A stretch of 64,000 nt of DNA from an uncultured Chitinophaga sp. GTDB lineage: Bacteria; Bacteroidota; Bacteroidia; Bacteroidales; GCA-2748055. Positions within the stretch are counted from its first letter, which is position 1. Every line of letters starts with the position of its first letter. Below are positions 22,283 through 63,211 of the stretch, in pieces. Below the pieces are notes generated by a model. The model saw only the letters and a program-made list of their open reading frames with translations. It searched no databases and was not told the origin of the DNA. Where the stretch lies: positions 5,564-69,563 of the forward strand of contig CAYGFI010000005.1 of the NCBI GenBank assembly GCA_964349045.1. The letters are read 5' to 3'. Made by a program: the position numbers and the translations under genes.

Positions 22283-22406
22283 TATAAGGTATTAGTTTTT
22301 GAAGGCGCTCCTGAATTTATTACGATTAACCTGTATTAAATTTTAAATATTTACCGGGTCATTAATAAGATTTCCTGGCAGAATGTTTATCTATCTTTCA
22401 GTTTAA

Positions 22407-22447
22407 GGAAGCAGGAAGAAAACACGAAATGTTAAAATCCTGCTTCC
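22407..22447 (-). other. Intra-operon stem-loop just downstream of susD-like gene
   Basis: Perfect 10-bp inverted repeat GGAAGCAGGA / TCCTGCTTCC separated by 21 nt. No clear U-tract follows. Confidence 0.35.
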
Positions 22448-22455
22448 TCACACAA

Positions 22456-23925: not shown

Positions 23926-23948
23926 ATCTTTTCTTTTTAACAGGTTTA

Positions 23949-33707: not shown

Positions 33708-33845
33708 CAAGGTTTCGCGCAAAATCGTACACGACACAATGTAAAATATAATCCATACCTTCTAATAACTTTATGTTTCCTGCGTCTTTGCGTGAAAAAG
33801 AACCGAAATATACCGAGATACTATCCTGAAAAAACGAGATTGAAA

Positions 33846-37051: not shown

Positions 37052-37070
37052 ATCTTTTATTATGAAAATG

Positions 37071-40397: not shown

Positions 40398-40430
40398 TCC
40401 TGGTTAATGTTTATTCAAAGTAAATTGATT

Positions 40431-41963: not shown

Positions 41964-41974
41964 TCTGCTAATAT

Positions 41975-43621: not shown

Positions 43622-43634
43622 ATTTTTACAAATC

Positions 43635-45155: not shown

Positions 45156-45271
45156 TTAATATATTTTTTAGCAGCCAGATGGAACAATTATTTTATAAAT
45201 TTCTTTCATAAAGTCGGTGTTCGAATAACATGTGGGTTTCATTTTTGCCATTCCTTAAAAGTTCACATTAA

Positions 45272-48200: not shown

Positions 48201-48502
48201 AAATCAATACTCATAGGTTGTGTCGGATCAGGTATCACCTCCTTAGTTTCATAACCGATAAGGCTGATTTTAAGGATGTTATTAATATTTTTCATTTCAA
48301 GAATGAAGTCTCCGTTCACATTACAAATAGTCCCGTTTATAATACGGTCCTCTTTATCATACTCAATAATGTTTGCACCAATAATACCAAGCTTGTTATT
48401 ATCGATAACCCTTCCCCTGATTATGACCTTTTGCTGTGCTATGGCTGTTACAAAACCAAATATTGCAATTATAAGCAGGATAGTTTTTTTGAATTCTTTC
48501 AT
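45272..48502 (-). CDS. SusC/RagA family TonB-dependent transporter
   Basis: Start taken at the internal ATG 48502 (MKEFKKTILLIIAIFGFVTAIAQQ), which avoids overlap with the upstream gene. Plug region is VIRGISSMGNNKPLIVVDGIP and the terminal residues are ...FTASIGF. Confidence 0.85.
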   Translation of the reverse strand: MKEFKKTILLIIAIFGFVTAIAQQKVIIRGRVIDNNKLGIIGANIIEYDKEDRIINGTICNVNGDFILEMKNINNILKISLIGYETKEVIPDPTQPMSIDLAETNFELEEVVIAVKAKSSHSLTNIDERDNASSSVKVDLLDMKEMGVSSASDALQGKVSGLDIISASGDPGSGAQIVIRGISSMGNNKPLIVVDGIPQFSVPGSFDLSSADAEDIGNLVNIALQDIKSIEVLKDAASTAVYGSKGADGVLIIETFKGRLGKVQFDYSYKTSINYQPPPIPMLNGDEYIMLQLEEWHNNYGVFKVPSEIAYDKDYVDFYNYSANTDWIGAITQNSVTNDHYFNISGGGQKTRYFTSLSYVDEGGTTINTSSKRFSTRVNLDYFLSRNLLFSVQFNYTNNRTDGNYIVYSRPQGMNIREMAYIKAPNMSIWEHDADGKLTGEYFNPINSYQGSGFNYFNPVAVANLGKNDVLSNSLNNTFILRYKILDKITFRETVSFQYTGNKANSFLPYNAIGLDWLEWEINRADENNGLSSAINTETQLAFDSPFKSKDHIFSGALTWVTIQSGWEYQYVQSLKSPSTDIQDPSVNPQIGWIGTGSQETRELGALMNLNYKFKDRYMLQTIARADASSSFGANNRWGVFKGVAVGWRFSDENFFKSLSFLGESMLRASWGTAGRQPGSPYARFATYGSPYPSSYMNLTAVVPTQIQLNNLKWESISSTDLGIEFNLFKDRMYLEGDLYKKTTSNLLFKDYPIPGSSGFDKLLLLNGGELENRGWELMFDIKLIRKKDFRWSVYFNSSQNINTFTRLPDNFNVEKSTSIGNGEYPRRVEQGQAMGSFFGFRYLGVYPTDADAMARDADGNILYDNNGSPIPMTYLGTYKFKGGDARYQDINHDGKIDLNDVVYIGDSNPDFIGGYGTSAKYKSWEVSCGFHYRLGFDIINGVAISTEGMNDKNNQSKAVLRRWRVQGQDEKAMLPRAYLYNPANNLGSDRYVEKGDYLRLLNVMIGYRLPQSICNKLNLRSLTLALSGRKLMTFTNYSGQDPEVSQDATDPFWIGVDNARTPPSRMVTFTASIGF

Positions 48503-48545
48503 TTCGTTCACAAATCTTAGTTTAATAATCAATTTATCGAACAAA

Positions 48546-50867
48546 CTATTGAGTATCCGATTCATTTACCAAAAGGACCTTGTCAATCTGGTGAATAACA
48601 GCGTTGGAAATGACATTGGGGAATACTTCCAGTCCCCCTACCCCCTCTGAAGTAACAAGTTTCCTTACCGTAATAATATTGGTATTGGGTGATTCAGGAA
48701 TAGCTATGTAATCTGAACCTGACAGACCCGGGATATTTATTTCATCAACACCGGGATTTATATATACCTTGGTGAAGATAGTTGTAAAGGGTGTGGATTT
48801 TTCATCAATCCTGGTAGTCTCATAATATTTTGCAGGCTTATTTCCGTCAGTAAAAATCATGTCTCCCTGTATAAAATGGAAAAGAAGAAATTGCTTAAGA
48901 TCCGGAACACTCATTGTATCTACCTGATATTCAGTTAAAGCTGCCACACTTGGTATAAATACGGTATAAAATTCATTGTCGGAAATGAATTTATAAGTGT
49001 AAAGTTTGTCGTTTGTCAAACCAGCTTTTTTAAGCAGATTGTGAAAATAAGGAAAGGAAGTTGAAATTTTCTGAAATAAATCAACAGATGCAAAATTGAA
49101 CCAGTTTGAAATATTATAGGTAATCCCGTTATCAGCATTTGTGCTTATTTGTTTGGGAAAAACATTTACTTGCTCTTCTCCGCTGTAACCTATAGTTGAA
49201 GGAGCCGTTCCGCTTACCTCACCTGTTTCGTTGTTAAAAATTAAAAAATTCCCGGCAAGATTTCGGATAAACTCTTTTTTCGCGATTCCATTTGGAATTT
49301 CTACACCTATATGATTAAGAATCAACCTACGTAGCTCATTTGTCGATAACGAAATTTCCTGAAACTGGTCCCCCGATGTCTGAAAAAGCGAAAACCGGTC
49401 ATTAATCGGATTATATATAAGGGAGGAATCAAACCGCAGGTTTAAATCCGATTCCGCATAAAGTAAATAATTATTAGATTCTTTTTTTAGTGCAGGCAAT
49501 AAGCCTGTTTTTTCAATGGCATACATAGCAATTGAATAACCCCGCTGAAGGTAAATAGGCCCGGTAATGCTCTTAAATGCCCGGGGAACTATCATTTTAT
49601 TTACGCCAATGAAACTGCAATTGCTTCCAAATTCCTTATGAATTATGGTCGAAGGATCAACATATATTATATCTTTCTCACCATTATAAAATCCTTTATA
49701 GAAATCAGAAGGATAAATTGCATTGTAAGACATTTGCGTATTTGCCATCATTCTTTTTATATGAAGAGGAGTCTCTTTTAATGACCCCCAATTATCGGGA
49801 CCGGCAATATATTCACTGATGAATGCATCAAATGCATCATTGGTAGGAGCTATCAACCCATGATGATAGCGGATAGAAACATTACCCGGTAATCCGACTG
49901 TCCCCAATGGAGCTTTTGTTTGCTCATTCGTAATGTTAAATGCCAGTTTTGGAAAGCTTATGTCAAAAAGGGAATCTACCGTATATCCAAGGTCTGCTCC
50001 TGGTTGTGCGATAGTTCTTTCCCGGTTATAAAGGAATTCCGGAAATATATCAACCAGGTCAAGGAACTTACTGTAAGAAATGTCATCATTCTTTGTGCTG
50101 AGAATCTGGTAAGCGTTTTTAAGTGGTTCAATCACCCTGTCAATTACATGGATAAACCCGTTTTCAGCAAAAATGTCACCGGTAATTATTTTCCCACTGA
50201 CAAAGTAAATATCATTCGGACTATCAAAAGGCCTTTCAAAATAGAAAGTAAAATCATTCGAGCTAAGATCGAAAATGTTAAAGTACTCATTGTAAAAAAC
50301 CGGTGCATATTTTCTGGAATCAGTTGCCTGTCGTCTGTACCAGTCAGTGAGAAGTGTGTCAACAATAGCAATCACCTTGTTTTCATTGACCTTAACCCCA
50401 TATTTCGGGTCCTTATCACGCAACAAAGTTTCCCTTTTAAAACCTTTGGGCTTGTCGTTATTTATGTCAGTTGAATCGATCCATCCATGCACATCCAGGG
50501 ATCTGAGCTGGAGTTTACTCCAGGGATTCTGCACAATATGAAATTTAACAATACGGTTTAATTCGTCAGGTGGAATATCTGTAACAGAGTTATATCCGGG
50601 ATGAGACTGCAAATATAGTGTAAAGGCATCATTGTCCGGGGCAAATACAGTATAACTCCCTGAAGTATTAATAATAGTGTCATAACCGGTTATTTCCAGG
50701 CACCGGGCAAACTGAGAAAGTTCAGGACGAGACTTAATCTGGATAAACAACTTTCCTGCGAGCCAGTCAGGACGGGCATATTTGTCAGAAAGTTCAAGGT
50801 CTTCTTTGCAACTGATAATGCTTGCAAACAACAATGCAAGAAACAATAATTTTTTGATTCGAATCAT
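48546..50867 (-). CDS. Multi-FAS1 (about four fasciclin domains) lipoprotein, first gene of the string
   Basis: 773 aa with lipobox ASIISCKED. Repeated FAS1 marks are YTVFAPDNDAFTLY, LIAPTNDAFDAF, YTVFIPSVAAL and NAVIHQIDKVLL. Confidence 0.65.
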   Translation of the reverse strand: MIRIKKLLFLALLFASIISCKEDLELSDKYARPDWLAGKLFIQIKSRPELSQFARCLEITGYDTIINTSGSYTVFAPDNDAFTLYLQSHPGYNSVTDIPPDELNRIVKFHIVQNPWSKLQLRSLDVHGWIDSTDINNDKPKGFKRETLLRDKDPKYGVKVNENKVIAIVDTLLTDWYRRQATDSRKYAPVFYNEYFNIFDLSSNDFTFYFERPFDSPNDIYFVSGKIITGDIFAENGFIHVIDRVIEPLKNAYQILSTKNDDISYSKFLDLVDIFPEFLYNRERTIAQPGADLGYTVDSLFDISFPKLAFNITNEQTKAPLGTVGLPGNVSIRYHHGLIAPTNDAFDAFISEYIAGPDNWGSLKETPLHIKRMMANTQMSYNAIYPSDFYKGFYNGEKDIIYVDPSTIIHKEFGSNCSFIGVNKMIVPRAFKSITGPIYLQRGYSIAMYAIEKTGLLPALKKESNNYLLYAESDLNLRFDSSLIYNPINDRFSLFQTSGDQFQEISLSTNELRRLILNHIGVEIPNGIAKKEFIRNLAGNFLIFNNETGEVSGTAPSTIGYSGEEQVNVFPKQISTNADNGITYNISNWFNFASVDLFQKISTSFPYFHNLLKKAGLTNDKLYTYKFISDNEFYTVFIPSVAALTEYQVDTMSVPDLKQFLLFHFIQGDMIFTDGNKPAKYYETTRIDEKSTPFTTIFTKVYINPGVDEINIPGLSGSDYIAIPESPNTNIITVRKLVTSEGVGGLEVFPNVISNAVIHQIDKVLLVNESDTQ

Positions 50868-51541: not shown

Positions 51542-52444
51542 ATGGAAGATTTCTTCAAATACCTTACTCCCGGTGAAGAAGATATTGGTTGGGGACTTTA
51601 CCTGAATGTTGTAGGTAAAACCATTATTCCGCCAGGACTGATTTATCCCAGTATCGATCACCCCAGCGGTTATTTTTTCACTTGGGACAAGGGACGGGTT
51701 CTTCATGAATACCAGATCGTATATATTTCAGAAGGCGATGGGATCTTTGAAGATGAAACCGGCGAATTCCCTATTAAAGCAGGATCGCTACTAATTCTGC
51801 AGCCTGGAAGATGGCATCGGTATAAACCGGACCCGGGTAAAGGATGGACAGAAAGTTATGTTGGATTTAATGGTCTTTCGGCAAATTTAATGTTTACCAA
51901 TCCTCAACTTACTCTTATAAAACCCGTTGTCCATATTGGTAACCGTGAGGAATTCATTGACACGTATTATAAAATATTCAGATTTGCACAAGCTGAAAAG
52001 CCTGGATTCCAACAGATTACTGCAGGTATGGTAATGAAACTCCTGGGATATCTTATTTCAATTGAAAAAAGACTTGATTTCTCGGAGAAAAGAATCGAGA
52101 AAATCATAGAAAAAGCATGTTTTCTCATAAGAGAAAATATTGAAAAGGAAATTGATTTTAAACAGTATGCAGATGAGAACTGTGTAGCATATTCCTATTT
52201 CAGAAGAATGTTTAAAATGTATACCGGATTACCCCCGGCTAAATATCATCTTGACCTTAAGATCATCAGGAGCCGTGAATTATTGCTTTCAACTGATAAA
52301 ATAATCAAGGAAATCTGCAATGAAGTTGGATTTGAATCAACTTATTATTTCAGCAGACTATTTAAAAAAAAAACAGGTATTTCTCCTTCCCTCTTCAGAA
52401 CTTCGGCCAATAATCAAAAAGGGCAGAAAAAAATTATTCGGTGA
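51542..52444 (+). CDS. AraC family transcriptional regulator (N-terminal cupin-like sensor, C-terminal double HTH)
   Basis: 300 aa. The C-terminus (YFRRMFKMYTGLPPAKYHLDLKI...ICNEVGFESTYYFSRLFKKKTGISPSLFR) is the AraC/XylS HTH signature. Confidence 0.85.
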   Translation: MEDFFKYLTPGEEDIGWGLYLNVVGKTIIPPGLIYPSIDHPSGYFFTWDKGRVLHEYQIVYISEGDGIFEDETGEFPIKAGSLLILQPGRWHRYKPDPGKGWTESYVGFNGLSANLMFTNPQLTLIKPVVHIGNREEFIDTYYKIFRFAQAEKPGFQQITAGMVMKLLGYLISIEKRLDFSEKRIEKIIEKACFLIRENIEKEIDFKQYADENCVAYSYFRRMFKMYTGLPPAKYHLDLKIIRSRELLLSTDKIIKEICNEVGFESTYYFSRLFKKKTGISPSLFRTSANNQKGQKKIIR

Positions 52445-52910: not shown

Positions 52911-55900
52911 ATGAAGACAAAACTACTATTGATTGTTCTTCTTATGGTTGCCGGGATTCTGAATGCCCAGGATACCATAAGAACTCTTGTGATTACGGAG
53001 TACAGGGGTGATGATTCACGTCAAAACTTCGTTGAAATCAGCAATGTTGGTACAACAACATTAAACCTTGCTAATTTTCAGATTGGAACCGTTTCTCCCT
53101 GGAGTACTCCGATAGAAAGAGGCAATCTGCGAAAAGCATGGAATTTAATAGGGAATACACCCTGGCCATTTACAGTAGTGCTTCGGTTGCCGGAAAAAAA
53201 TCTTGCTCCCGGTAAATCTTTTACTATCGGTCCATTGTACGACTGGAACCCTGAAGCATTTAACAGGGGAGACCCAAGAGGCATCCGGGTCATGAACAAA
53301 AAGGAATGGTGGACCCTTGCAGACATTCAGGCCCATTTTCCTGAAAACCCGAAGCAGCCAGACCCTACAGATAGTGCAAATATCTGGCACCGTCTGATTG
53401 ATCAGTGGGGCGGCGCTTATGGTATATACCTCGCACAGTATCTTTCACCAACCGACTCTGTTGTAATTGATTTGGTGAATGTTTATGAATGGGATGCCGA
53501 TGGCACAAGAGATGAGAGTCCTCATGATGTGGCAGGTGTTACCCATGCTACAAGAACTGCTACACTTATTCGCAAGTTCAGCGTGAAGAAAGGGAATCTT
53601 GATTTTCTGAAAGCAGCCGGACTTGATTATACCGACTCCGAATGGATACCCATTCCCCATCTTACCGGCGGCTGGGAACCTCATCGGTCCTTGTTCTGGA
53701 CTGCTGGTAACCATGGAGATTATAATTTGGACGAAGCAACACTTACCTCAAATACTGTTGATATAAACTGGACCAACCATGTTCTTACGGTTCCCTGGGG
53801 TGTAAGGAGAGACGATTCACTTATGTACCAGTTTAACCGTAAACCCGGTTTAGCTTGGCATTTTGATTATGCCCCGTCATCTGTCGATTCTGCATTCTAT
53901 TCTCTCAGAACCGGTGATGCCATGACTATTTATGCCTGTGGAAATGATGTGGATATTATTAAATTTGATATTGTTGTTTCTCCTCCTACAGCTGGTGAAA
54001 ACAGGGTTGTACCTAAAAAGATGGGAAATTTACATGGATATTTCTCCCTTGGTCCACCCAGCTGGGTAGTAACTGATAAGGTTCCCGGCATGGATACCAT
54101 TCAGGAGATTCCCTTTGGAATCCGGTCGGATACCCTGCTCAAATATCTCGAAAAAGCTCCCGAAGCAAACTGGGAATTCGAATGGGTTGACGGTAATGTC
54201 AGGACAGATCTACAGACCGGTGATATCCTGAAAGTTACAGCCAAGAATGCAAGCGTAAAGAGATACTATATTAAGCCAAATAAAATCCAGAAAAGCCATA
54301 ATGCTAACCTGGCCTCTATCACCTGGCCTGATATTCCTGAATTCTATAAAGGTCTCTATGGGTGGGTTGGTGATACTATTCCAACTTTCGCGACCAGCAA
54401 AACCGAATACATTCTCCAGGTTCCCCTCGATGTAACTGGTATACCTGCTTTGGTTGGGAAAACACAGAATATCAATGCACAACTTGAGGTTGACAGGGCT
54501 AAAAATTTAACCGGATCTAATGCAGACAAAACGGTTACATTTACAGTTACGGCCCAGGATGATACCACTATAATGGTATACAAGGTTCAGCTCGAAAAAG
54601 AAAAAGACCTATCCAATATTCAACCCTGGGTGGGAAAACCATTTATTTCACAATTTGTCTGGATGAATGATTTCCGCAATACTTTTCTTGAAGTAGTAAA
54701 TCCGGGAACCGAACCTCTTGATTTAAGTAATTATATGATCGTTTCCGGGTATGCTGCCAATCCGGCTGACGCCATCAGACAAGCCGCAGGAACCGGTGAT
54801 TTTGCCGAAAGGTATAGAAAATATATCCCAGGCTATAAATGGGTACCGGAAGCTGATTGGGCAACAAAACCAGGCATCGCTCAACCGGATGTAAATATTG
54901 ATCCGATTGTTCAGGCTGGAGATGTCTTTGTTTTGGCTCAAATTTACTGGGATAGTCCGGATGGAAGCGCTCCTACTTTCATAAAGCCTCAGGTTGATCT
55001 TGATTTAGCGAATAACCCATGGGATGAACCATTAGCACAGTGGTCATCTCTTGAAATGTGGTTTGGAAAAGTCTATTTATTCGAAATCCTGAACGATTCT
55101 GTTAAAACAGGAAAAAAACCTGCAACAGATCCGAATGATTTTGAACTTCTTGACTGCTTTGCCGATAATGCCGGACAATGGAATGTTGGAGGTATTCCTG
55201 CAGGTCAAACCTTTGGTTATACCAGAAAGCCGGAAGTTTATCTAGGCAATCCTGTTATTGGAGGCTCATTTGGTACAACAGAAGAGAATAGTGAATGGGT
55301 AATGCTTAATGAAGCCCGGCTGCAGGCAAAAGGTTACCCCTGGCCAAACTGGAGAGCCTATACCTGTGAAGGTATTGGTTCTCACTTCATGAAGGCTTAT
55401 ACCGGCTATATGTCCATTGTTGGATCAAATGCCTACAAAGTTTCTGAAGGTTACACCAATGCAGAGACCATCAGAGGGATCGTAACCGGAACCACTGTAT
55501 CAGATTTTCTTGCTGCTTTATCAAAAGTAGATGAAGGTCAAACCCTGACAGTAAAAAGAGCTGGTGTTGCTGTTCTATCAACTTCTGCACTTGTAAATGG
55601 AGATGTTCTTGAAGTGGTTTCCGCTGACGCAGTTAATACAACCAAATACACTCTTGAAGTTACTGCCGGTGGTTTACCCGATAACGCGGTTCTTACTTCA
55701 ACTCAATATACAATTGCAATTACGGGTGCAACCGGAACAATATCAGGTTTTGATTATAGTGTACCCTTAAGGACAATTGTTGAAAATGTTGTAGTTCCTG
55801 ATGGTGCAACATTCAATGTTATAGACGGAAACAATGCATACGTGCCCCTTATGATCCTGAATTATGATACCATTTTGGTGGCTGTCCGGGTAAATTCCAA

Positions 55901-56735
55901 TACATATTTTGAAGTAATAGCTGAAAACGGAACTACCAAGATTGTTTACCAGCTGATACCAAACATGATGAACAGCGGTGCATTTGTAACCTCCAATGTT
56001 TTTACTGTAAACCATTCGGCTTCACTCATATCTGATGTTCCTGATGGTGCCGGAGTATATGGTTTTATGAAGTATATTATACCTGCTCCAGGTGCAACAG
56101 TTAAACTGATTGATAAACTTGGTTATGAAAGGACCATGGGTAATATCTATGTAGACGACCGGATTTTAGTTACTTCTGAAGATGGTCTGACAACCAAGAT
56201 ATATTATCTGAAGGTTTTACGTGAAATATCCAATTACCTTGCATATGTATTATCCGATATCTATGCTGTTGATCAGATAGGGTATACAATTACAGGTGAT
56301 TTCAGTGTTGCAACCACTGTAAGCAGCTTCCTCGCAAACCTTATCCCCGCTGAAGGAGCTACAATGAAGGTAACAAACGCTGCTGGTGTTCAACAAACCG
56401 GCAACATGGCGGTTGGTAATTTACTTGTTGTTTCTGCAGGTGATGGTATTACCACGGTAACCTATTCACTTGAAGTTGGAACAAGTGTACGCAATATCAA
56501 CGCTGGTTCAATAAATGTTTATCCAAACCCGAGTAACGGAATGATCTATGTCTCCGGCCTCGAAACAGGACACAGGGTAGCCGTTACCAATATGCTGGGT
56601 CAGAGATTGATTGACAGGGAAGTTAAACAGAACATCGAAATGTTCAACCTGGAAGGTCAGTCTGGCGGAGTTTATTTCATAACTGTTAATAACGGAAACC
56701 AGGTTGTAGGTCGCTACAAACTGATTCTGCAATAA
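52911..56735 (+). CDS. Large T9SS-secreted protein with two lamin-tail-domain-like modules, a cadherin-like beta-sandwich and repeated ~75-aa modules; C-terminal T9SS sorting domain
   Basis: Start taken at ATG 52911 (MKTKLLLIVLLMVAGILNAQ). LTD-like segments are LVITEYRGDDSRQNFVEISNVGTTTLNLANFQI and NTFLEVVNPGTEPLDLSNYMIV. The CTD is INVYPNPSNGMIYV...GGVYFITVNN...YKLILQ. Confidence 0.6.
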   Translation: MKTKLLLIVLLMVAGILNAQDTIRTLVITEYRGDDSRQNFVEISNVGTTTLNLANFQIGTVSPWSTPIERGNLRKAWNLIGNTPWPFTVVLRLPEKNLAPGKSFTIGPLYDWNPEAFNRGDPRGIRVMNKKEWWTLADIQAHFPENPKQPDPTDSANIWHRLIDQWGGAYGIYLAQYLSPTDSVVIDLVNVYEWDADGTRDESPHDVAGVTHATRTATLIRKFSVKKGNLDFLKAAGLDYTDSEWIPIPHLTGGWEPHRSLFWTAGNHGDYNLDEATLTSNTVDINWTNHVLTVPWGVRRDDSLMYQFNRKPGLAWHFDYAPSSVDSAFYSLRTGDAMTIYACGNDVDIIKFDIVVSPPTAGENRVVPKKMGNLHGYFSLGPPSWVVTDKVPGMDTIQEIPFGIRSDTLLKYLEKAPEANWEFEWVDGNVRTDLQTGDILKVTAKNASVKRYYIKPNKIQKSHNANLASITWPDIPEFYKGLYGWVGDTIPTFATSKTEYILQVPLDVTGIPALVGKTQNINAQLEVDRAKNLTGSNADKTVTFTVTAQDDTTIMVYKVQLEKEKDLSNIQPWVGKPFISQFVWMNDFRNTFLEVVNPGTEPLDLSNYMIVSGYAANPADAIRQAAGTGDFAERYRKYIPGYKWVPEADWATKPGIAQPDVNIDPIVQAGDVFVLAQIYWDSPDGSAPTFIKPQVDLDLANNPWDEPLAQWSSLEMWFGKVYLFEILNDSVKTGKKPATDPNDFELLDCFADNAGQWNVGGIPAGQTFGYTRKPEVYLGNPVIGGSFGTTEENSEWVMLNEARLQAKGYPWPNWRAYTCEGIGSHFMKAYTGYMSIVGSNAYKVSEGYTNAETIRGIVTGTTVSDFLAALSKVDEGQTLTVKRAGVAVLSTSALVNGDVLEVVSADAVNTTKYTLEVTAGGLPDNAVLTSTQYTIAITGATGTISGFDYSVPLRTIVENVVVPDGATFNVIDGNNAYVPLMILNYDTILVAVRVNSNTYFEVIAENGTTKIVYQLIPNMMNSGAFVTSNVFTVNHSASLISDVPDGAGVYGFMKYIIPAPGATVKLIDKLGYERTMGNIYVDDRILVTSEDGLTTKIYYLKVLREISNYLAYVLSDIYAVDQIGYTITGDFSVATTVSSFLANLIPAEGATMKVTNAAGVQQTGNMAVGNLLVVSAGDGITTVTYSLEVGTSVRNINAGSINVYPNPSNGMIYVSGLETGHRVAVTNMLGQRLIDREVKQNIEMFNLEGQSGGVYFITVNNGNQVVGRYKLILQ

Positions 56736-56752: not shown

Positions 56753-56792
56753 AAAGAGGCTGTCTCTGCATGGAGACGGCCTCTTTCTTTTT
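56753..56792 (+). terminator. Rho-independent terminator after the LTD/T9SS protein gene
   Basis: Stem AAGAGGCTGTCTC / GAGACGGCCTCTT with one mismatch and loop TGCATG, followed by TCTTTTT. Confidence 0.6.
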
Positions 56793-56898: not shown

Positions 56899-59001
56899 AT
56901 GGGATCGGTCATTTCACGAACATTTCGATTTTCTCTTTTATTCCTGATCCTGGTCAGTGCCATTCTTATGGTAACCTCAGGTCAGAATATGCCTGTCCAA
57001 AAAACAGAAGGAGAAATAATTCTGACACAAAACTCTCCATTGGTTGGCGCCATTCGATGGGATGGATGGGTTGGAAACAAAGGATCCTGGCAAATAGGTC
57101 CAATAGTGGAACGCACACTGGGGCCTTCTAAATTTCACTACAGGGCGCCCTTTTTTAGCATTGTAACCGGCAAGGACTCCATTTCAATTGACGGCACAAC
57201 CCAGGAAATCATGGATAAGGAGATTGTCTTTGCAACGGAGGCAGGTATTGATTACTGGGCATACTGCTGGTATCCCGATGGATGTGGATTGGAATTAGCC
57301 CGAAAATTGCACCAGACCAGTATACTTGCCAACGATGTAAAGTGGTGTGTAATTTTAGGAACCTTCGAGGTAAATGTATTAAATAATTATGGTGCCTCTC
57401 TGGTTAATGATTTTGCCCGTGAAAACTATCAGAAGGTATTAGGTGGCCGCCCATTAATTTACCTGTATAGCAGCGATTTAACCAGGGCAGGCCTGGATAA
57501 GTTAAGAGCAATGACTATTGCAAAAAATTTAAAAACACCTTATGTTGTAGTAATGGCATGGGATGCAGCTTCAGCGGCAGACTATTGTCAGGTCATCGGT
57601 GCCGATGCAATAAGCAGCTATGCTGCCCTGGGAAATAATAATCGTCCTTTTACTGAAGTAATTCCCCCCCAAAGTAAGGCAAATTGGGAAAAATTTGCTG
57701 CAAAAAAAGAAGTTGTTCCCTGGGTTTGCACAGGATGGAATGCTAAACCCCGTATGGAAAGCGAAAATCCATGGAGTTCTTACTATTCGGATGCAACAAA
57801 CTGCCAGGATGCGACCGCAAATGATATAAAAGATTTTTTGCTATCAGCAATTGATTGGACAGTTTCTCACAGGAGTAAGGTTGTTGCAAATACCCTGATC
57901 ATGTATGCCTGGAATGAACACGATGAAGGCTATGGTGCAATTTGTCCTACACTTGGAACAGACGGGATGCCAGATACCGAAAGACTCGATTCGGTTAGAG
58001 TGGCACTTCAGGGAAGAATGAAAGATACCATCATAATCAGGTCGTTTCAACTGAATGTTGTGGTAAAAGATGTTGAATTGAATAGTCCAATAAGTGATGC
58101 AAGGGTAATGATTAATAAGGATACCGTGATTTCTGATCAGGAAGGAATCTCTTATTACAACAGTGTACCTGAAAATTTTGTTTTGAGTATTGAAAATGAC
58201 AAATATCTGCCTGTTACCAGAAGATCTATCTCTGTAAATAGTGATACAACTCTCATCTTTTATCTTATTCAACGCGGTTTTAATGTATCCCTCACCCTGA
58301 TGGATAATAAAACTCATGAACCATTCTGGGGTGCCCGTGTAACTGTTGATTCAAATACTCAGGTAACAGATGGATCCGGCCAGGTATTATTTTCTCTGAG
58401 GAGTGGCACCTATGAGTATACCATAAATAAAATTTCCTATCAGGTTGAAACCGGAAATATCTCTATTACTTCAGATACCAGTATAATCTTCTACCTGACT
58501 CAAACCCATGCTGAGGCCAAATTCCGGTTGTATGACGGCCTGACGCCCCTGAATAACGCAATCATAAAGGTAAATAGTGATTCTCTTTTGACAAACGCTA
58601 TTGGAATAGCGCTGTTTAAACTACTCCCGCTGAATTATTTATATTCGTATTCTATCATAAAAGAAGGTTATAATAGTAATTATGGAGAGTTTTTTCTGAG
58701 TAAAGATACATTGATTGACATTTCTGCGGAAAGAAATAACCTGGGTTCTGAACTTTTATTAAACCCACACAATATGAAATTATGGCCCAATCCGGCGTCC
58801 GGATTCCTTCACTGCTCCTTTCCTACAAGGTTTTTAAACAGTACTTTCATAATTACTGATATGGCTGGAAATGAAATTTATTCAGTTGTATTGAATGAGA
58901 CAGAATTTAGTTTAAGTCTGAGGGATTTCCATTCGGGCACGTATTTCCTTCGGGTAATCTCAGATTATAATTATACAGGTATTCTTATTATCAGTAAATG
59001 A
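56899..59001 (+). CDS. T9SS-secreted putative glycoside hydrolase: GH99-like-superfamily catalytic domain, three CarboxypepD_reg-like repeats and a T9SS C-terminal sorting domain
   Basis: 700 aa. Residues ~45-370 are a close paralog of the 62132-63211 product. Three ~75-aa repeats each end in ...SDT.LIFYL. The CTD is LWPNPASGFLHC...SGTYFLRVIS. Confidence 0.55.
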   Translation: MGSVISRTFRFSLLFLILVSAILMVTSGQNMPVQKTEGEIILTQNSPLVGAIRWDGWVGNKGSWQIGPIVERTLGPSKFHYRAPFFSIVTGKDSISIDGTTQEIMDKEIVFATEAGIDYWAYCWYPDGCGLELARKLHQTSILANDVKWCVILGTFEVNVLNNYGASLVNDFARENYQKVLGGRPLIYLYSSDLTRAGLDKLRAMTIAKNLKTPYVVVMAWDAASAADYCQVIGADAISSYAALGNNNRPFTEVIPPQSKANWEKFAAKKEVVPWVCTGWNAKPRMESENPWSSYYSDATNCQDATANDIKDFLLSAIDWTVSHRSKVVANTLIMYAWNEHDEGYGAICPTLGTDGMPDTERLDSVRVALQGRMKDTIIIRSFQLNVVVKDVELNSPISDARVMINKDTVISDQEGISYYNSVPENFVLSIENDKYLPVTRRSISVNSDTTLIFYLIQRGFNVSLTLMDNKTHEPFWGARVTVDSNTQVTDGSGQVLFSLRSGTYEYTINKISYQVETGNISITSDTSIIFYLTQTHAEAKFRLYDGLTPLNNAIIKVNSDSLLTNAIGIALFKLLPLNYLYSYSIIKEGYNSNYGEFFLSKDTLIDISAERNNLGSELLLNPHNMKLWPNPASGFLHCSFPTRFLNSTFIITDMAGNEIYSVVLNETEFSLSLRDFHSGTYFLRVISDYNYTGILIISK

Positions 59002-59238
59002 TAAGTTTCCAAATTAACTGGAATGATTGATCAAAAATTTTTGTTCGACGAAAATTAGACATAATACCAAAGCTCTATCATTTTTATTATAGGAATTACC
59101 TTATTCCAGAGAAAGAAAAGCCCTCAAACCCGGGGTAGTGCTTGTCACGCCTTGCGGGAGGTTGGGGAGGGGAATTAAGAATAATTTCTATAAAAAAGTC
59201 GCTCTTGAGGTACAAAAACAATTAAATTAATCCAAATT

Positions 59239-59270
59239 GTTCATTTAGTGTAAACTAAAGTTCATTTTGT
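59239..59270 (+). promoter_or_regulatory. Candidate AraC-family operator upstream of the sulfatase gene
   Basis: GTTCATTTAGT lies at 59239-59249 and GTTCATTTTGT at 59260-59270. The spacing is 21 bp and the site is ~150 bp upstream of ATG 59416. The unit is the same as in the two arms flanking the AraC gene. Confidence 0.4.
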
Positions 59271-59415
59271 CTATTTTACAATGAATTAAATTACCATAAA
59301 TTTACTTTTGCCAGGGATAAATTTCAATTTGAGAAGTTCATGACTTACATTTCTTTTAGCAAAAGGATCAACCATAAAACTCAGAATAGCCCAAATTTCA
59401 CCAATCCTAAATCTG

Positions 59416-60816
59416 ATGATGATTAAATCTTGCTTAAATCTAAATCGAAGTACATCAGCTTTAATCCTGTTCTCAGGGCTTTCATTATCAGGATGCGTCA
59501 AAGAGGATCCGTTAAAACCCAATTTTTTGATCATCCTTACAGATGATTTAACCTACCGTGCCCTGGGCTATAATAATGAACTGGTAAAAACACCTAATCT
59601 TGATAAGCTTGCCCGCCAGGGTATCATTTTTGACCGCGCTTATATTTCCACACCAGTATGTGCTGCAAGCAGGGCAAGTATGTTAACCGGACTTTATCCG
59701 CAGACAAATGGCACTGTGGCCTTAGATACAAAGTCATTTATCAAAAATATTGTTCAGGAAAAAAGGTTCAAAACATTACCCCAGGTTCTGAATGAAGCTG
59801 GTTATAAAAGTTATTTTAGCGGGAAGTCTCATTTAGGAGATCCCAAAGATTACGGATTTCATTTCGGAAAAGAAACTCCTGATTATGATGATAAAACAGC
59901 ATTTGAGGATGTATACGGATTTATCGATTCACCAGAATTCGGACAAAAACCATTTTTACTATGGCTTGCTGTAAGGCAACCCCATGTGCCACTTAAGCCG
60001 GAAGAGAAATGGCTTAAACTTTATTCAGAAACAAATTTCCCCATAGAAAAGAATTTTTTGAAGGAACCTCCTTCAGAAAGTTTTTATAACCAGGGCCTTC
60101 CTGGTGAAAATTTCTACCGGGATTCTGATTACACTGATAATTATAAAAATTTACCGGCCGGCCCTCCACGACCTGTTGAAGTCATCCGTGAATTTACCAA
60201 AGCGTACTACGCTACAATAAGTCATCTCGACTTTCAGATTGGTGAATTAATTGATCAGCTTCAATCCAAAAACCTGTTCGAAAATACAGTATTGATTTTT
60301 TTATCCGATAATGGGTATTTTTTAGGGAACCATGGTCTAGGCAACAAATTAACCATGCACGAAGAGTCAGTCCGTGTTCCGATGTTTATTTATTGGGATA
60401 AACTCCCTAAAACCAATATTCACTCGGATGCACTTGTCTCGAGCGTGGATGTATTTCCTACCATTCTTGACCTGGCTGGAATAGATATACCTGATTATCT
60501 TCAGGGGATTTCATTAAAGCCCTTGCTTGCAAATCCCTCGATGCAACTGAATGAATATGTTGCCAGTGAAAGTGTTGGAGTAGGAGGAGAATTGGGTTTA
60601 GGGCACAGAATGATCGTGAAGGATAAATGGAAATATATTCTGTCGGATACGGGAGACGAGGCACTTTTTTATTTAGAGGATGATCTTTATGAAATTGACA
60701 ACCTGATAGATGACATACAACACCAGGGGGAGGTCTTTAAATTAAAAGCTTTTTTGATAGATTGGAAAAACAAAACCGGAGACAATAAAGATATTCCTGT
60801 CGGAATGCCCAAATAA
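59416..60816 (+). CDS. Sulfatase (formylglycine-dependent, Cys-type) lipoprotein
   Basis: 466 aa with lipobox LSLSGCVKED. It has LIILTDDL and the active-site signature PVCAASRASMLTG (C-x-A-x-R variant). Confidence 0.8.
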   Translation: MMIKSCLNLNRSTSALILFSGLSLSGCVKEDPLKPNFLIILTDDLTYRALGYNNELVKTPNLDKLARQGIIFDRAYISTPVCAASRASMLTGLYPQTNGTVALDTKSFIKNIVQEKRFKTLPQVLNEAGYKSYFSGKSHLGDPKDYGFHFGKETPDYDDKTAFEDVYGFIDSPEFGQKPFLLWLAVRQPHVPLKPEEKWLKLYSETNFPIEKNFLKEPPSESFYNQGLPGENFYRDSDYTDNYKNLPAGPPRPVEVIREFTKAYYATISHLDFQIGELIDQLQSKNLFENTVLIFLSDNGYFLGNHGLGNKLTMHEESVRVPMFIYWDKLPKTNIHSDALVSSVDVFPTILDLAGIDIPDYLQGISLKPLLANPSMQLNEYVASESVGVGGELGLGHRMIVKDKWKYILSDTGDEALFYLEDDLYEIDNLIDDIQHQGEVFKLKAFLIDWKNKTGDNKDIPVGMPK

Positions 60817-60884
60817 CAAAAAAGCGTACAATATATTTCAATATTATTGTATGCTTTAATATTTTTACATTAAATACTTACATT

Positions 60885-62114
60885 ATGAAATCGCAACTAT
60901 TGACTTTCGCATTTTTAACCCTTCTTGTATCCTGCAAACCTGGCAAAAAAGTCAATCAGGAGCCGGATAAAATCACTGTTGCCTCTTACTATTTTCCCAA
61001 CTACCATATCAGGGGGGGCGACCATCTCCCTATCAGCAAACAAGCAGTTCTTGATAATAAGTCAGAGTGGGAATTAGTAAAAAATGCAAAGCCACGCTTT
61101 GAGGGCCATCAGCAGCCAAAAGTTCCGGCATGGGGTTACACCGATGAAAAAGATCCTGCTGTAATGGCAATGAAAATTGAAGCTGCTTCCGAATATGGAG
61201 TCGATGTTTTTATTTTTGACTGGTACAACTACAACGGCCAGCCATTTTTAAACCAGTGTCTTGACGAGGGATTCCTGAAAGCTGAAAATACAGACAAGTT
61301 GAAGTTTGCCCTGATGTGGGCCAACCATGACTGGAAAGATCTTTTCCCCTGTAATGAAGGCAACCTTGGTGAACTGCCGGTAATGTATGAAGGAATGGTT
61401 GCAGCTGATGCTTTTGATAAGCTTGGAAATGAAATTATCCGCGACTATTTTACAAAACCAAACTACTGGTTAATTGATGGTAAACCCTATTTTTCCATTT
61501 ATGACGTAACAGAATTTATTGAAGGATTTGGAAGTATGGAGGCTGCAAAAGAAGCAATGGAAAACATGAACGAAAAAGCTATTGCAGCAGGGCTTAAGGG
61601 GATTCACTGGAACCTTGTTGCCTGGGGCAATCCAATATTACCCGGACAAAAAGTACCTTCAAGTATTCCGGAGCTCATTACAAAACTCGGTTTTAATTCT
61701 GCTACTTCTTATGTATGGATTCATCATGTTCAGTTACCTGAGGTGCAAAACGATTATAATACTGCACGGGAAAAATATTTTACCCATTGGGATAAAGCAA
61801 AAGAAGAATATGGAGTACCCTACTTCCCGAATGTTTCCATGGGATGGGATTCTTCTCCCCGTACAAACCAGGAAATGGGATGGAAACATACATCGGGATA
61901 TCCTTACACAGGGATACTGGTAAATAATACACCTGAAAACTTCAAAGAAGCACTACAACTGACAAAAGCCAGATTGCTTTCAGACCCTGATGGTCCGCGC
62001 ATATTTAACATCAACTGCTGGAATGAATGGACCGAGGGAAGCTACCTTGAACCAGATACTATTAACGGTATGGCATATTTAGAATCTATTAAGGAAGTAT
62101 TTAAAAGCAATTGA
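60885..62114 (+). CDS. GH99-like domain (WbsX-family) protein, lipoprotein
   Basis: 409 aa with lipobox LLVSCKPG. Family marks are VASYYFPNYH...SEWELVKNAKPRFEGHQQPKVP...GVDVFIFDWYNY...INCWNEWTEGSYLEPD. Confidence 0.6.
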   Translation: MKSQLLTFAFLTLLVSCKPGKKVNQEPDKITVASYYFPNYHIRGGDHLPISKQAVLDNKSEWELVKNAKPRFEGHQQPKVPAWGYTDEKDPAVMAMKIEAASEYGVDVFIFDWYNYNGQPFLNQCLDEGFLKAENTDKLKFALMWANHDWKDLFPCNEGNLGELPVMYEGMVAADAFDKLGNEIIRDYFTKPNYWLIDGKPYFSIYDVTEFIEGFGSMEAAKEAMENMNEKAIAAGLKGIHWNLVAWGNPILPGQKVPSSIPELITKLGFNSATSYVWIHHVQLPEVQNDYNTAREKYFTHWDKAKEEYGVPYFPNVSMGWDSSPRTNQEMGWKHTSGYPYTGILVNNTPENFKEALQLTKARLLSDPDGPRIFNINCWNEWTEGSYLEPDTINGMAYLESIKEVFKSN

Positions 62115-62131
62115 TTATTAATCAGATCAAT

Positions 62132-63211
62132 ATGGAAAATATTAAAGACAAAATCCTCTTGCTGTTTGCTTTTACTGTCTTGTCATATGGCACAGGATGC
62201 AACCATGCAACAAAGGAACCTGAAAAAATTATTGTTGGTGCAATTCGCTGGGATGGCTGGGTTGGGGAAAAAGGTTCATGGCAGATTGGCCCGATTCTGG
62301 AACGAACAATGGGACCGGAGAGATTTCATTACAGGGCGCCATTTTTCAGTAAAGTTCTTGGAAAAGATTCCATTTCAATAGATGGAACCAGCCAGGAAAT
62401 TATGGATATGGAAATTGCCTACGCAAAAGATGCCGGGATTGATTACTGGGCCTATTGTTATTATCCCGATGGTTGTGGACTTGAACTTGCCAGGAAACTT
62501 CACCAGACAAGTAACTATTCAAATGATATAAACTGGTGTGCCATTTTAGGGGCTTCAATCGCTGCTGATTCAACCATGGATTATAGTAAAAGTCTGGTAT
62601 CTGATTTCGCAAAGGAGAACTATCAGAAAGTGTCAGATGGGCGACCCTTGATTTATTTACTTCATGGAAGTAACATAAGCAGGGCTGAAATCGACCAGCT
62701 GCGGACAATGTGTATTGAAAGCAATCTGAAAAATCCTTACGTTGTGGCAATGGAATGGAGTGCTGATCTCGCTTCAGAATATTGTGATAAATTAGGAGCC
62801 GATGCCATCAGTTGTTATGCCACGCTGGGAAAAGACACCAGACCTTTCGCAGAAATAATTCCACCCCAAAGTTTAATACTCTGGGAATCCTATGCAACAA
62901 AAAAGGCAGTGGTTCCATGGGTTAGCACCGGTTGGAATGCAAAACCCCGGATGGATAGTCCAAACCCATGGACTAAATATTATGCTGATTCAACAAATTG
63001 CCAGGACGCGACTCCTGAAGATATCAGGAACTTTCTGCATACAGCAATAAAATGGACCCAATCGAACCGAAATGCTACCGTTGCAAACACTATTCTCATG
63101 TATGCCTGGAATGAACATGATGAAGGCTACGGGGCTATTTGTCCGACACTTGGGAAAGATGGAAAGCCAAACACCGAAAGACTTAATGCGGTTAAGGACG
63201 CACTGAAATAA
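62132..63211 (+). CDS. Lipoprotein paralog of the 56899 catalytic domain (distant GH99-like superfamily, putative glycoside hydrolase)
   Basis: The ORF track starts at TTG 62111, overlapping the upstream stop; ATG 62132 gives MENIKDKILLLFAFTVLSYGTGCNH, a lipoprotein signal. By eye about two-thirds of residues are identical to the 56899 protein over ~330 aa (IRWDGWVG.KGSWQIGP, GIDYWAYC.YPDGCGLELARKLHQTS, MYAWNEHDEGYGAICPTLG). Confidence 0.55.
   Translation: MENIKDKILLLFAFTVLSYGTGCNHATKEPEKIIVGAIRWDGWVGEKGSWQIGPILERTMGPERFHYRAPFFSKVLGKDSISIDGTSQEIMDMEIAYAKDAGIDYWAYCYYPDGCGLELARKLHQTSNYSNDINWCAILGASIAADSTMDYSKSLVSDFAKENYQKVSDGRPLIYLLHGSNISRAEIDQLRTMCIESNLKNPYVVAMEWSADLASEYCDKLGADAISCYATLGKDTRPFAEIIPPQSLILWESYATKKAVVPWVSTGWNAKPRMDSPNPWTKYYADSTNCQDATPEDIRNFLHTAIKWTQSNRNATVANTILMYAWNEHDEGYGAICPTLGKDGKPNTERLNAVKDALK

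Follow-up and report, generated by a model that had tools for sequence, protein, structure and literature searches.

Gene content of the locus

The window analysed here, a stretch of 64,000 nucleotides from an uncultured Chitinophaga sp., ends in a row of plus-strand genes that encode two paralogous proteins (paralog 1 and paralog 2), a WbsX-like/GH99-like protein and a sulfatase (Table 1). Two SusC/SusD pairs (35123-48565), an AraC regulator and then enzyme genes give the locus the make-up of a PUL, and the SusC/SusD pairs are likely its uptake machinery. In the 1274-aa secreted protein, no catalytic domain was recognised, and solved structures match its sorting domain only.

Genes past the window end, and the gene call of the 1274-aa secreted protein, were taken from the source-contig record; over 11,869 bp this record and the window have the same sequence. 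Directly downstream of paralog 2 lies a GH106 gene, which encodes 1003 aa at full length (PF17132, E 1.9e-40 for the fragment and 6.3e-171 for the full protein). It is followed by the rhamnose mutarotase gene rhaM and two further PF14307-type genes. The preliminary description had counted three members of one GH99-like superfamily; their shared homology holds, but the count was too low, as the locus carries at least five PF14307-type members, three in the window and two just beyond its end. An alternative TTG start of paralog 2 at 62111 would give a 4-nt overlap with the stop of the preceding gene.

Table 1 Features of the locus and their positions in the window
Feature	Position (nt)	Strand	Position (aa)	Remarks
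Two SusC/SusD-like pairs and three fasciclin-domain proteins	35123..50867	-		interleaved; Plug, SusD_RagB and Fasciclin Pfam
SusC/SusD-like pair 1	45272-48565 / 43635-45155	-
SusC/SusD-like pair 2	37071-40397 / 35123-37177	-
AraC-family regulator	51542..52444	+		PF12833, PF00165, PF02311; heads the plus-strand gene row, divergent from the SusC/SusD genes
Secreted protein	52911..56735	+		1274 aa; lamin-tail PF00932, T9SS sorting PF18962
Terminator-like hairpin	56753-56786			15 bp; after the 52911..56735 gene
Paralog 1	56899..59001	+		700 aa; open reading frame at these coordinates
Paralog 1, GH99-like (beta/alpha)8 domain	57028-58014	+	~44-372
Paralog 1, CarboxypepD_reg-like repeats	58027-58734	+	377-612	three of ~78 aa
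Paralog 1, type-A T9SS C-terminal sorting domain	58780-58971	+	628-691
Paralog 1, motifs 1 / 2 / 3 / 4 core			49-59 / 115-128 / 276-285 / 339-344
Paralog 1, N-E-H-D-E-G motif	57913..57930	+	339-344	predicted catalytic pair Glu340 and Glu343
S1 sulfatase, formylglycine-dependent	59416..60816	+		466 aa; PF00884 E 2.3e-53
Sulfatase, formylglycine motif C-A-A-S-R	59659-59673	+	82-86
WbsX-like / GH99-like protein	60885..62114	+		409 aa; open reading frame at these coordinates; lipoprotein-type signal
WbsX-like protein, motifs 1 / 2 / 3 / 4 core			30-41 / 104-118 / 317-326 / 380-385
WbsX-like protein, N-E-W-T-E-G motif	62022..62039	+	380-385	candidate residues Glu381 and Glu384
Paralog 2	62132..63211	+		359 aa; open reading frame at these coordinates; one GH99-like (beta/alpha)8 domain, preceded by a lipoprotein-type signal
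Paralog 2, motifs 1 / 2 / 3 / 4 core			35-45 / 101-114 / 264-273 / 327-332
Paralog 2, N-E-H-D-E-G motif	63110..63127	+	327-332	candidate residues Glu328 and Glu331
GH106 alpha-L-rhamnosidase, N-terminal 233 aa	63301..64000	+		cut by the window end; lipoprotein-type signal (...FLCSC)

The first ~372 aa of paralog 1 and the whole of paralog 2 share 228/360 identities (63%, E 8e-174; BLASTP, aa 14-371 of paralog 1), close to the two-thirds estimated by eye for the N-terminal ~330 aa. The duplication is old, as each paralog has a higher identity to proteins from other organisms (73-80%) than to its partner. Homologs at 45-47% identity already go by the NCBI name 'glycoside hydrolase family 99-like domain-containing protein'. 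The reported fusion of paralog 1 to three CarboxypepD_reg-like repeats and a T9SS domain is borne out by profile matches to the repeats (PF13620, E 4.5e-10) and the sorting domain (PF18962, 30.3 bits, cut-off 27; TIGR04183, 30.8 bits, cut-off 23), and the three repeats match one another pairwise (E 1e-10, 4e-6 and 3e-6).

All three proteins bear predicted export signals. Paralog 1 starts with the hydrophobic stretch MGSVISRTFRFSLLFLILVSAILMVTSG, which reads by eye as a Sec-type signal that lacks a lipobox Cys, and this signal together with an above-threshold sorting domain marks it as putative type-A cargo of the T9SS. Two further T9SS-tailed proteins are encoded at the locus. Lipoprotein-type signals are seen in paralog 2 (...SYGTGC, Cys23), in the WbsX-like protein (...LLVSC, Cys17, kept in 90% or more of the 41 homologs) and in the sulfatase (...LSLSGC, Cys27). 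The paralogs are thus predicted, as first proposed, to be routed to different compartments, paralog 1 by Sec and the T9SS and paralog 2 by its lipoprotein-type signal.

Homology and predicted fold of the three proteins

The 60885-62114 product, first described as WbsX/GH99-like, is a full-length member of PF14307 (Glyco_tran_WbsX), scoring 155.3 bits where the gathering threshold is 25.1 (E 3.7e-45; match to profile positions 24-350 of 350). Paralog 2 falls under this threshold (20.5 bits, E 3.7e-4) and paralog 1 gives no PF14307 match at E<=0.1; on the HMM of the paralog family it scores 517 bits. Across that family, 47 of 53 members match PF14307 at E<0.01 (best 2.6e-10). Profile searches, which could have placed the paralogs in an unrelated known family, return PF14307 as the sole Pfam family that matches their catalytic domain. 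An hhalign comparison of the 53-sequence paralog-family alignment with a 41-sequence WbsX-like alignment joins the two families over 268 columns (probability 99.1%, E 1.4e-18), and the two types separate cleanly on their own HMMs (~500 vs 20-60 bits).

Paralog 1, paralog 2 and the WbsX-like protein are therefore homologous. Judged by these profile comparisons, the paralogs are remote relatives of PF14307 and not threshold members. It had been suggested that they may form an unclassified glycoside hydrolase family; a hydrolase-type reading is supported, but the paralogs are a divergent subfamily of the PF14307/GH99-like assemblage and not a separate, unknown superfamily. Among relatives, added discoidin, ricin-B, T9SS or Tat-signal segments speak for an extracytoplasmic location.

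Four colinear motifs had been reported to link the paralogs with the WbsX-like protein, and each of these strings is found, in colinear order, in the three proteins; paralog 2 departs from the strings given for the pair by one residue in motif 2 (CYYPDG) and one in motif 3 (VSTGW). Motifs 2, 3 and 4 pair as described in the significant default local hhalign alignment of 268 columns, but motif 1 lies outside it. Setting -mact 0 or -glob extends the alignment over the full length (333 columns), and KIIVGAIRWDGW then stands opposite KITVASYYFPNY, with low confidence per column. In the predicted barrels, both motif 1 stretches make up beta-strand 1 (E34-39 in paralog 2, E31-36 in the WbsX-like protein).

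Motif 4 contains the acidic residues that were proposed as catalytic candidates. The Glu pair is invariant in the 53 paralog-family sequences (E328/E331 in paralog 2) and in the 41 WbsX-like homologs (Glu381 and Glu384), and the two pairs align with each other in both the local and the end-to-end hhalign comparison. The NEWTEG of the WbsX-like profile aligns with the NEWHEG of BxGH99 (4ad1 chain residues 322-345), and this sequence alignment thus places the two Glu at BxGH99 E333/E336. In the AF2 model of paralog 2, N-E-H-D-E-G stands immediately past predicted strand beta-8 (aa 320-324). Both families thus share an invariant N-E-x-x-E-G that follows the predicted eighth strand and aligns with E333/E336 of GH99. 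PULs often encode surface glycan-binding proteins, and paralog 1, with its extra beta-sandwich repeats and predicted surface location, invites the thought that at least one of the three is descended from an enzyme but now binds glycans without catalysis. The invariance of both motif Glu and of ~30 further positions across 53 diverse sequences, both window paralogs included, and likewise in the WbsX-like family, makes this very improbable.

The AF2 models of paralog 2 (pLDDT 93) and of the WbsX-like protein (pLDDT 83.6) each consist of eight strand/helix units. Their top solved fold matches in Foldseek are GH99 (E 5.2e-10) for the former and GH99/MANEA (E 2.7e-10) for the latter, with 4ad0, 4ad5 and 6zdf as the top matches (TM 0.5-0.65). 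The TIM barrel with conserved carboxylates expected for such enzymes is thus predicted for both, as an eight-stranded (beta/alpha)8 fold nearest to GH99. At the sequence level the similarity to GH99 is remote: identity is 13-15%, the WbsX-like protein matches PF16317 (GH99) at 17.2 bits (E 0.003), under the 33-bit threshold, the paralogs give no PF16317 match, and the WbsX-like profile reaches E 0.018 against PDB GH99 chains. Because of this remoteness, GH99-like chemistry is an extrapolation.

The Pfam name of PF14307, 'Glycosyltransferase WbsX', raises the possibility that these are glycosyltransferases or transglycosylases that build or remodel a cell-surface polysaccharide instead of degrading food. 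The protein that gave the family its name carries an O-antigen glycosyltransferase annotation, and wbsX-annotated genes occur in O-antigen clusters of the Wzm/Wzt type; one such cluster also has dTDP-L-rhamnose genes. However, this O-antigen role is annotation only in the literature found. The predicted fold is a GH-type TIM barrel and not GT-A, GT-B or GT-C, and the neighbours (SusC/D, sulfatase, exo-glycosidase, mutarotase) form a catabolic set. All three proteins carry export signals, one as T9SS cargo, and nucleotide sugars are absent outside the cytoplasm. We give a biosynthetic role hardly any weight.

Partner genes and a proposed function

Neighbour genes in 83 related loci were grouped by unsupervised clustering; the counts are raw frequencies. 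GH106 is the commonest CAZyme in these neighbourhoods (10/83 loci, plus five with a GH106-like protein), and sulfatases come next (9/83); AraC-type regulators occur in 12/83. Many related loci, mostly outside Bacteroidota, have no GH106 within 10 kb. When loci were sampled from the WbsX-like side, GH106 adjoined in 3/3, one of which also has two GH78 rhamnosidases, and a Chitinophagaceae PUL is made up of SusC/D together with six PF14307-type and two GH106 genes. The paralogs had been proposed to act with the adjacent sulfatase. This link is plausible, since sulfatases recur in the related loci, but the GH106 alpha-L-rhamnosidase is the stronger partner.

The sulfatase itself appears, by sequence, nearest to a rhamnose sulfatase among solved structures. 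Its best solved relative, 6HR5 (S1_25), matches over the full length with an identical CAASR motif (E 3.5e-46); S1_11 (E 2.5e-42) and S1_7 (E 1.3e-41) follow by a small margin, which makes S1_25 a tentative subfamily. In the system of 6HR5, desulfation is followed by exo-rhamnosidase action (PMC9096561).

These partners bear on whether the proteins are true GH99 equivalents, that is, endo-alpha-mannosidases or mannanases acting on alpha-mannan or another mannose-containing, not rhamnose-containing, glycan. The top fold matches of both models and the N-E-W-x-E-G motif speak for such an activity. The gene context points away from mannan: no alpha-mannosidase family (GH92, GH76, GH125, GH38) was found at this locus or in those related loci that were inspected, and what recurs beside these genes is GH106, GH78, rhaM and a sulfatase closest to a rhamnose sulfatase. 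With the remote identity and the below-threshold PF16317 score, we regard mannan-directed activity as improbable.

It is somewhat easier to imagine, though still unlikely, that the proteins are PUL glycoside hydrolases whose target in a mixed glycan is a linkage other than that of rhamnose (e.g. uronic acid, galactose, xylose or arabinose), while GH106 removes rhamnose caps only. Related loci join several PF14307-type genes with GH127, GH140-like, GH28, GH2, GH27, SASA and DUF4185, and such mixed partners argue for complex heteroglycans and varied specificities. A single locus can hold as many as six divergent PF14307-type genes. Since GH127, GH140-like, GH28 and SASA genes stand in for GH106 in some related loci, the PF14307 assemblage probably spans several specificities. 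However, some PULs hold PF14307-type genes, GH106/GH78 and SusC/D only, which leaves few other sugars to explain. A GH99 mechanism would also need an axial 2-OH trans to the leaving group, which alpha-L-rhamnosides should offer and most other candidates should not.

Together, our results suggest that the three genes probably encode extracytoplasmic, retaining GH99-like (PF14307) TIM-barrel glycosidases of a Bacteroidota PUL for a sulfated, rhamnose-containing glycan. We then propose a model in which catalysis would be retaining and GH99-like. On the cell surface or in the medium, the T9SS-exported paralog 1 may make the first cuts in the polymer, with its three beta-sandwich repeats serving as spacer or binding modules. 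Fragments would be taken in by the SusC/SusD pairs, and the putative lipoproteins (paralog 2, the WbsX-like enzyme, the S1 sulfatase and the GH106 exo-rhamnosidase) could complete the breakdown, after which the rhamnose mutarotase would pass L-rhamnose into catabolism. Since WbsX-like and paralog-type genes stay adjacent in most Bacteroidota loci (21/31 side by side), it is tempting to speculate that the two types differ in job, for example in linkage or in endo versus exo action.

We found no published characterisation of these proteins in the literature. The family is widespread, no published activity test of it was found, and its repeated pairing with rhamnose-releasing enzymes yields a testable guess at the glycan digested.

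Comparison with known systems

GH99 (PF16317; the endo-alpha-1,2-mannosidases/mannanases BtGH99, BxGH99 and human MANEA) shares the (beta/alpha)8 barrel with the proteins described here. It also shares the N-E-W-x-E-G motif past strand beta-8 with the WbsX-like protein, with weaker colinear matches to the WbsX-like profile around strands 2-4. GH99 enzymes act as endo-alpha-1,2-mannosidases or mannanases with retention via a 1,2-anhydro sugar, and Bacteroidota members are PUL enzymes, such as BT3862 in a yeast-mannan PUL; the partner enzymes here are rhamnosidases and a sulfatase instead of mannosidases. The alpha-1,3-glucanases of GH71 (Agn1, AnGH71C) are the second-best solved fold group (E 1e-6 to 1e-4); they show lower structural and sequence similarity than GH99, and faint Pfam GH71 matches appear only in some relatives.

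PF14307, whose members NCBI names 'glycoside hydrolase family 99-like domain-containing protein' or 'glycosyltransferase WbsX family protein', has the paralog family as a remote sister. Its Pfam name implies a glycosyltransferase, a poor fit to the exported PUL proteins here; in the published literature we found neither a measured activity of any PF14307 member nor an assignment of PF14307 to a CAZy family. The 6HR5 system differs from the locus in that the sulfatase here is a separate, putative lipoprotein, the rhamnosidase is GH106 and not GH78, and no ulvan lyase was seen at the locus. Common to both is a scheme in which desulfation comes first and an exo-rhamnosidase acts next.

Gene organization of the locus

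The genes from 51542 to the window end all run in the same direction on the plus strand, and three of them encode PF14307-type proteins (Pfam Glyco_tran_WbsX): paralog 1, the WbsX-like protein and paralog 2. The window belongs to the ENA contig ERZ27247837:k141_1208014 (overlap 11,869 bp, zero mismatches), on which the row continues with a complete GH106 gene, the L-rhamnose mutarotase gene rhaM and two further PF14307-type genes. The locus is a polysaccharide utilization locus (PUL) with at least five GH99-like genes; the preliminary description counted three superfamily members, which holds for the window but not for the whole locus. Upstream, on the other strand, two SusC/SusD pairs are interleaved with fasciclin-domain proteins, an unusual accessory set for a PUL.

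Features of the locus in the window and past its end
Feature	Position	Strand	Match or remark
SusC/SusD, DUF4874+DUF4832 protein, PKD protein	20008-27167		further carbohydrate gene group
GH26, GlcNAc-2-epimerase-like gene	32598-35066		further carbohydrate gene group
Two SusC/SusD pairs, three fasciclin-domain proteins (773, 579, 525 aa)	35123-50867	-	
AraC-type regulator	51542-52444	+	
Lamin-tail/T9SS protein, 1274 aa	52911-56735	+	
Terminator-like hairpin	56753-56786		strong; 15 pairs, then T-run
Paralog 1, 700 aa	56899-59001	+	
S1 sulfatase	59416-60816	+	
WbsX-like protein, 409 aa	60885-62114	+	
Paralog 2, 359 aa	62132-63211	+	
Antisense ORF	62400-62750	-	inside paralog 2 gene
GH106 alpha-L-rhamnosidase	63301 to window end	+	cut by window end
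Complete GH106, 1003 aa	first past window end		E 6e-171
L-rhamnose mutarotase rhaM	after GH106		E 2e-30
URO-D-like gene	after rhaM		PF01208, E 5e-18
Fourth PF14307 gene, WbsX-like type	after first URO-D-like gene		E 3.8e-41
Second URO-D-like gene	after fourth PF14307 gene		PF01208, E 5e-25
PhyH-type dioxygenase	after second URO-D-like gene		E 1.7e-33
Small T9SS protein	after PhyH-type dioxygenase		
Fifth PF14307-type gene, divergent paralog type	after small T9SS protein		155 bits, partial product

The N-terminal signal of paralog 1 is hydrophobic and has no lipobox cysteine. The protein further contains three internal repeats of ~78 aa (pairwise E 1e-10, 4e-6 and 3e-6; PF13620, E 4.5e-10) and a type-A T9SS sorting domain, which exceeds both curated thresholds. 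Lipoprotein-type signals are found in paralog 2 (…SYGTGC), the sulfatase (…LSLSGC), GH106 (…FLCSC) and the WbsX-like protein (…LLVSC), in which the cysteine is present in at least 90% of homologs. These features agree with the earlier proposal that the two paralogs are routed to different compartments, as far as sorting signals predict it.

The best solved relative of the sulfatase is 6HR5 (E 3.5e-46), with a whole-length alignment and an identical CAASR formylglycine motif. Because the margin to the next PDB matches (E 2.5e-42 and 1.3e-41) is small, this match suggests the sulfatase subfamily but does not establish it.

Several further observations concern the gene row. The stretch that separates the two further carbohydrate gene groups holds an aldolase, an amidohydrolase and an isomerase-like gene. 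Lamin-tail is the only recognisable domain of the 1274-aa T9SS cargo protein, which has no relative among the 89 related loci; in a search for a hidden catalytic domain, only the sorting domain matched solved structures. The terminator-like hairpin follows this gene, just before paralog 1. A sigma-70 promoter scan, ill-suited to Bacteroidota, gave 34 sites, fewer than the mean of 42 in shuffled sequence. The database protein of paralog 2 starts at ATG 62132, but with TTG 62111 as an alternative start the gene would share 4 nt with the end of the WbsX-like gene, stop codon included; the equivalent pair in the related locus L001 (8781-10004 and 10001-11116) also overlaps by 4 nt, which hints at translational coupling. 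The two URO-D-like genes and the PhyH-type gene, interleaved with the fourth PF14307 gene, occupy 14510-19261 of L088, the stretch of that ENA contig that overlaps the window (window-equivalent 66641-71392), and one idea is that they may remove O-methyl groups from sugars.

Relatedness of the three proteins and likeness to GH99

Over 360 residues the two paralogs share 63% identity (E 8e-174), close to the two-thirds estimated before, and the WbsX-like protein, as its described marks had indicated, is a full-length PF14307 match (E 3.7e-45). On the same model paralog 2 reaches 20.5 bits, under the cut-off of 25.1, and paralog 1 has no match. A direct BLASTP comparison of the WbsX-like protein with paralog 2 is marginal (E 0.001), with motifs 3 and 4 already paired. 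None of the three proteins has an NCBIfam model, and searching the PDB by sequence with either paralog 2 or the WbsX-like protein returned nothing usable.

We built family alignments around the paralogs (A1, 53 sequences) and around the WbsX-like protein (A2, 41 sequences). Aligned with hhalign, A1 and A2 are linked with a probability of 99.1% (E 1.4e-18, 268 columns). Each of the three proteins has all four motifs proposed to be shared, in colinear order; the profile-profile alignment pairs motifs 2, 3 and 4, whereas motif 1 is not covered under the local default settings. Run with -mact 0 or -glob, hhalign extends to 333 columns and KIIVGAIRWDGW pairs with KITVASYYFPNY (motif 1) at low column confidence, and both stretches form the first strand of the predicted barrels. 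PF14307 is matched at E<0.01 by 47 of the 53 paralog-family members, and type-specific HMMs separate the types cleanly (300-750 bits for the own type, 20-60 bits for the other). Because of the hhalign link, these PF14307 matches and the separable HMMs, we place the paralogs in the PF14307 assemblage as a divergent branch of their own and not as an unrelated family. On the whole, the analysis bears out what was described earlier and backs its interpretation in corrected form: the suggested unclassified glycoside hydrolase family is uncharacterised, but it is a PF14307 subfamily instead of a separate family.

In its catalytic domain, paralog 1 shares 73-78% identity with proteins from other organisms, two of which (P0052 and P0089) carry the same tail of repeats plus sorting domain; for paralog 2 the identity to proteins elsewhere (P0002, P0006 and P0007) is 70-80%. 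Since each paralog is closer to proteins elsewhere than to its partner, a recent duplication was rejected, and the duplication is old. The related contig L003 has the same order of T9SS paralog, WbsX-like gene, lipoprotein paralog and GH106, without the sulfatase. An apparent neighbour family at 45 loci was discarded because it is the antisense ORF within paralog-type genes, which most likely arises from conservation of the sense frame and is not a gene.

AlphaFold models of paralog 2 (pLDDT 93.0) and the WbsX-like protein (pLDDT 83.6) each contain eight strand/helix units. In Foldseek searches against the PDB, both models match GH99 endo-alpha-mannosidases/mannanases first (BtGH99, BxGH99 and human MANEA; E 5e-10 for paralog 2 and 3e-10 for the WbsX-like protein, TM 0.5-0.65, 13-15% identity), followed by GH71 alpha-1,3-glucanases, and no solved structure in this library is closer than GH99. 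The models thus support the predicted GH99-like barrel. The A2 profile matches GH99 chains weakly, in colinear pieces (E 0.018). In the best piece, ...NCWNEWTEGSYLEP is aligned with ...TSFNEWHEGSQIEP (4ad1 residues 322-345), and the two glutamates fall at E333 and E336, the catalytic pair of BxGH99; PDB titles among the Foldseek matches include E333Q and E336Q variants. Both glutamates, E381/E384 in the WbsX-like family and E328/E331 in the paralog family, are invariant per family and directly follow the eighth strand, which strengthens the case for the acidic residues of NEHDEG/NEWTEG as catalytic candidates. Their spatial arrangement we infer from the alignment.

Distribution and gene neighbours

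Among species-representative genomes, the paralog type was counted at 530 or more places, with carriers in Bacteroidota, Paenibacillus/Cohnella, Verrucomicrobiota, Planctomycetota, Armatimonadota, Hydrogenedentota and Streptomyces. Its profile finds 985 cluster representatives at E<=1e-30 among 1.84 billion, and up to 3529 depending on the E-value cut-off; the WbsX-like query alone matched 6113 proteins. Paralog-type proteins often carry discoidin or ricin-type modules, Tat signals or T9SS tails as fusions. A WbsX-like and a paralog-type gene are direct neighbours in 24 of 81 loci; among Bacteroidota loci the figure is 21 of 31.

When the neighbours lying within 10 kb at 83 loci were all clustered without supervision, the raw counts were 167 further PF14307-type proteins, AraC regulators at 12 loci, SusC at 11, SusD at 10, GH106 at 10 (plus five with a GH106-like protein) and sulfatases at nine. 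The adjacent sulfatase had been proposed as the partner; sulfatases do recur, but GH106 and rhaM are the main partners. One Chitinophagaceae PUL has the order GH106, FecR, SusC, SusD, six PF14307-type genes, GH106. GH106 is also adjacent in all three loci picked solely for a close WbsX-like homolog: the first, carrying a protein that NCBI names from Parabacteroides goldsteinii, has three PF14307 genes alternating with two GH106, the second (Proteiniphilum) has GH106 and two GH78 rhamnosidases, and the third is from Sphingobacterium.

Other loci combine five or six PF14307-type genes with GH127, GH140-like, GH28, SASA and DUF4185 genes. The related locus L004 (1-21125) and the 59-kb ENA contig of the related protein P0023 have two GH127-like and two GH140-like (DUF5060 + Apiosidase) genes and SusD in this set, which suggests a different, more complex substrate for other PF14307 branches. 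The PF14307 assemblage probably spans several specificities. A 473-477-aa protein with weak Fucose_iso_C/Arabinose_Iso_C matches lies directly beside PF14307-type genes at six loci in different phyla (L001 11113-12534; L092 14422-15855; also L037, L067, L078 and L082); the Fucose_iso_C-like window gene 29712-31091 is a distant relative (20% identity, E 8e-6) and was rejected as its ortholog.

A candidate pathway of glycan breakdown and its relation to known enzymes

The PUL combines three homologous GH99-like barrels, which have export signals and a conserved glutamate pair, with GH106, rhaM and a rhamnose-sulfatase-like enzyme. GH99 enzymes work through neighbouring-group participation: the substrate's own 2-OH, which must be axial and trans to the leaving group, takes part, and a 1,2-anhydro sugar forms as the intermediate. 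On stereochemical grounds, alpha-L-rhamnosides, the 6-deoxy mirror image of alpha-D-mannosides, would meet this requirement, and endo-alpha-L-rhamnanase activity of PF14307-type proteins is therefore chemically plausible and fits the gene context.

We then propose a working model. The three PF14307-type proteins would act as retaining glycosidases. The T9SS form, paralog 1, would attack the polymer outside the cell and SusC/D would take in the fragments; the lipoprotein forms, the sulfatase and GH106 would complete the breakdown, and rhaM would pass L-rhamnose to catabolism. It is tempting to extend this to PF14307 as a whole, both types being an uncharacterised family of endo-alpha-L-rhamnanases with the GH99 mechanism, and we hold this broader reading as tentative and rather doubtful. 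Under it, these enzymes would cut backbones of L-rhamnans or sulfated rhamnans, with bacterial cell-wall rhamnopolysaccharides and algal and cyanobacterial rhamnan sulfates as candidate targets, and the pair of WbsX-like and paralog-type genes with GH106 would form the core of a widespread 'rhamnan PUL'.

If the rhamnose link is true, these proteins would supply the missing endo-enzyme with which bacteria in soil, freshwater, gut and sea degrade rhamnans and sulfated rhamnose-rich glycans, and the unusual GH99 epoxide mechanism would reach a second sugar. The value of the finding lies in a concrete, testable function hypothesis for a large orphan family, for which the locus offers a ready set of secreted form, lipoprotein form, sister-family enzyme, sulfatase and exo-rhamnosidase.

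Searches of the literature on PF14307, WbsX, GH99-like proteins, endo-rhamnosidase and rhamnanase found no biochemical characterisation of the family. The name 'WbsX' was found there solely for a protein annotated as an O-antigen glycosyltransferase, in Wzm/Wzt clusters and in one case with dTDP-L-rhamnose genes alongside, and this label does not fit exported PF14307 proteins in catabolic loci. The link of PF14307 to the GH99 superfamily is already known, because in NCBI both types have homologs annotated as 'glycoside hydrolase family 99-like domain-containing protein' or 'glycosyltransferase WbsX family protein'; the three proteins are fresh members of a known yet uncharacterised kind. Rhamnose-cleaving enzymes characterised so far are, to our knowledge, exo-rhamnosidases (GH78 and GH106), lyases and phage tailspikes. 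Sequence membership in GH99 failed because PF16317, the Pfam model for this CAZy family, stays below threshold, and the likeness of PF14307-type proteins to GH99 is one of fold and motif.
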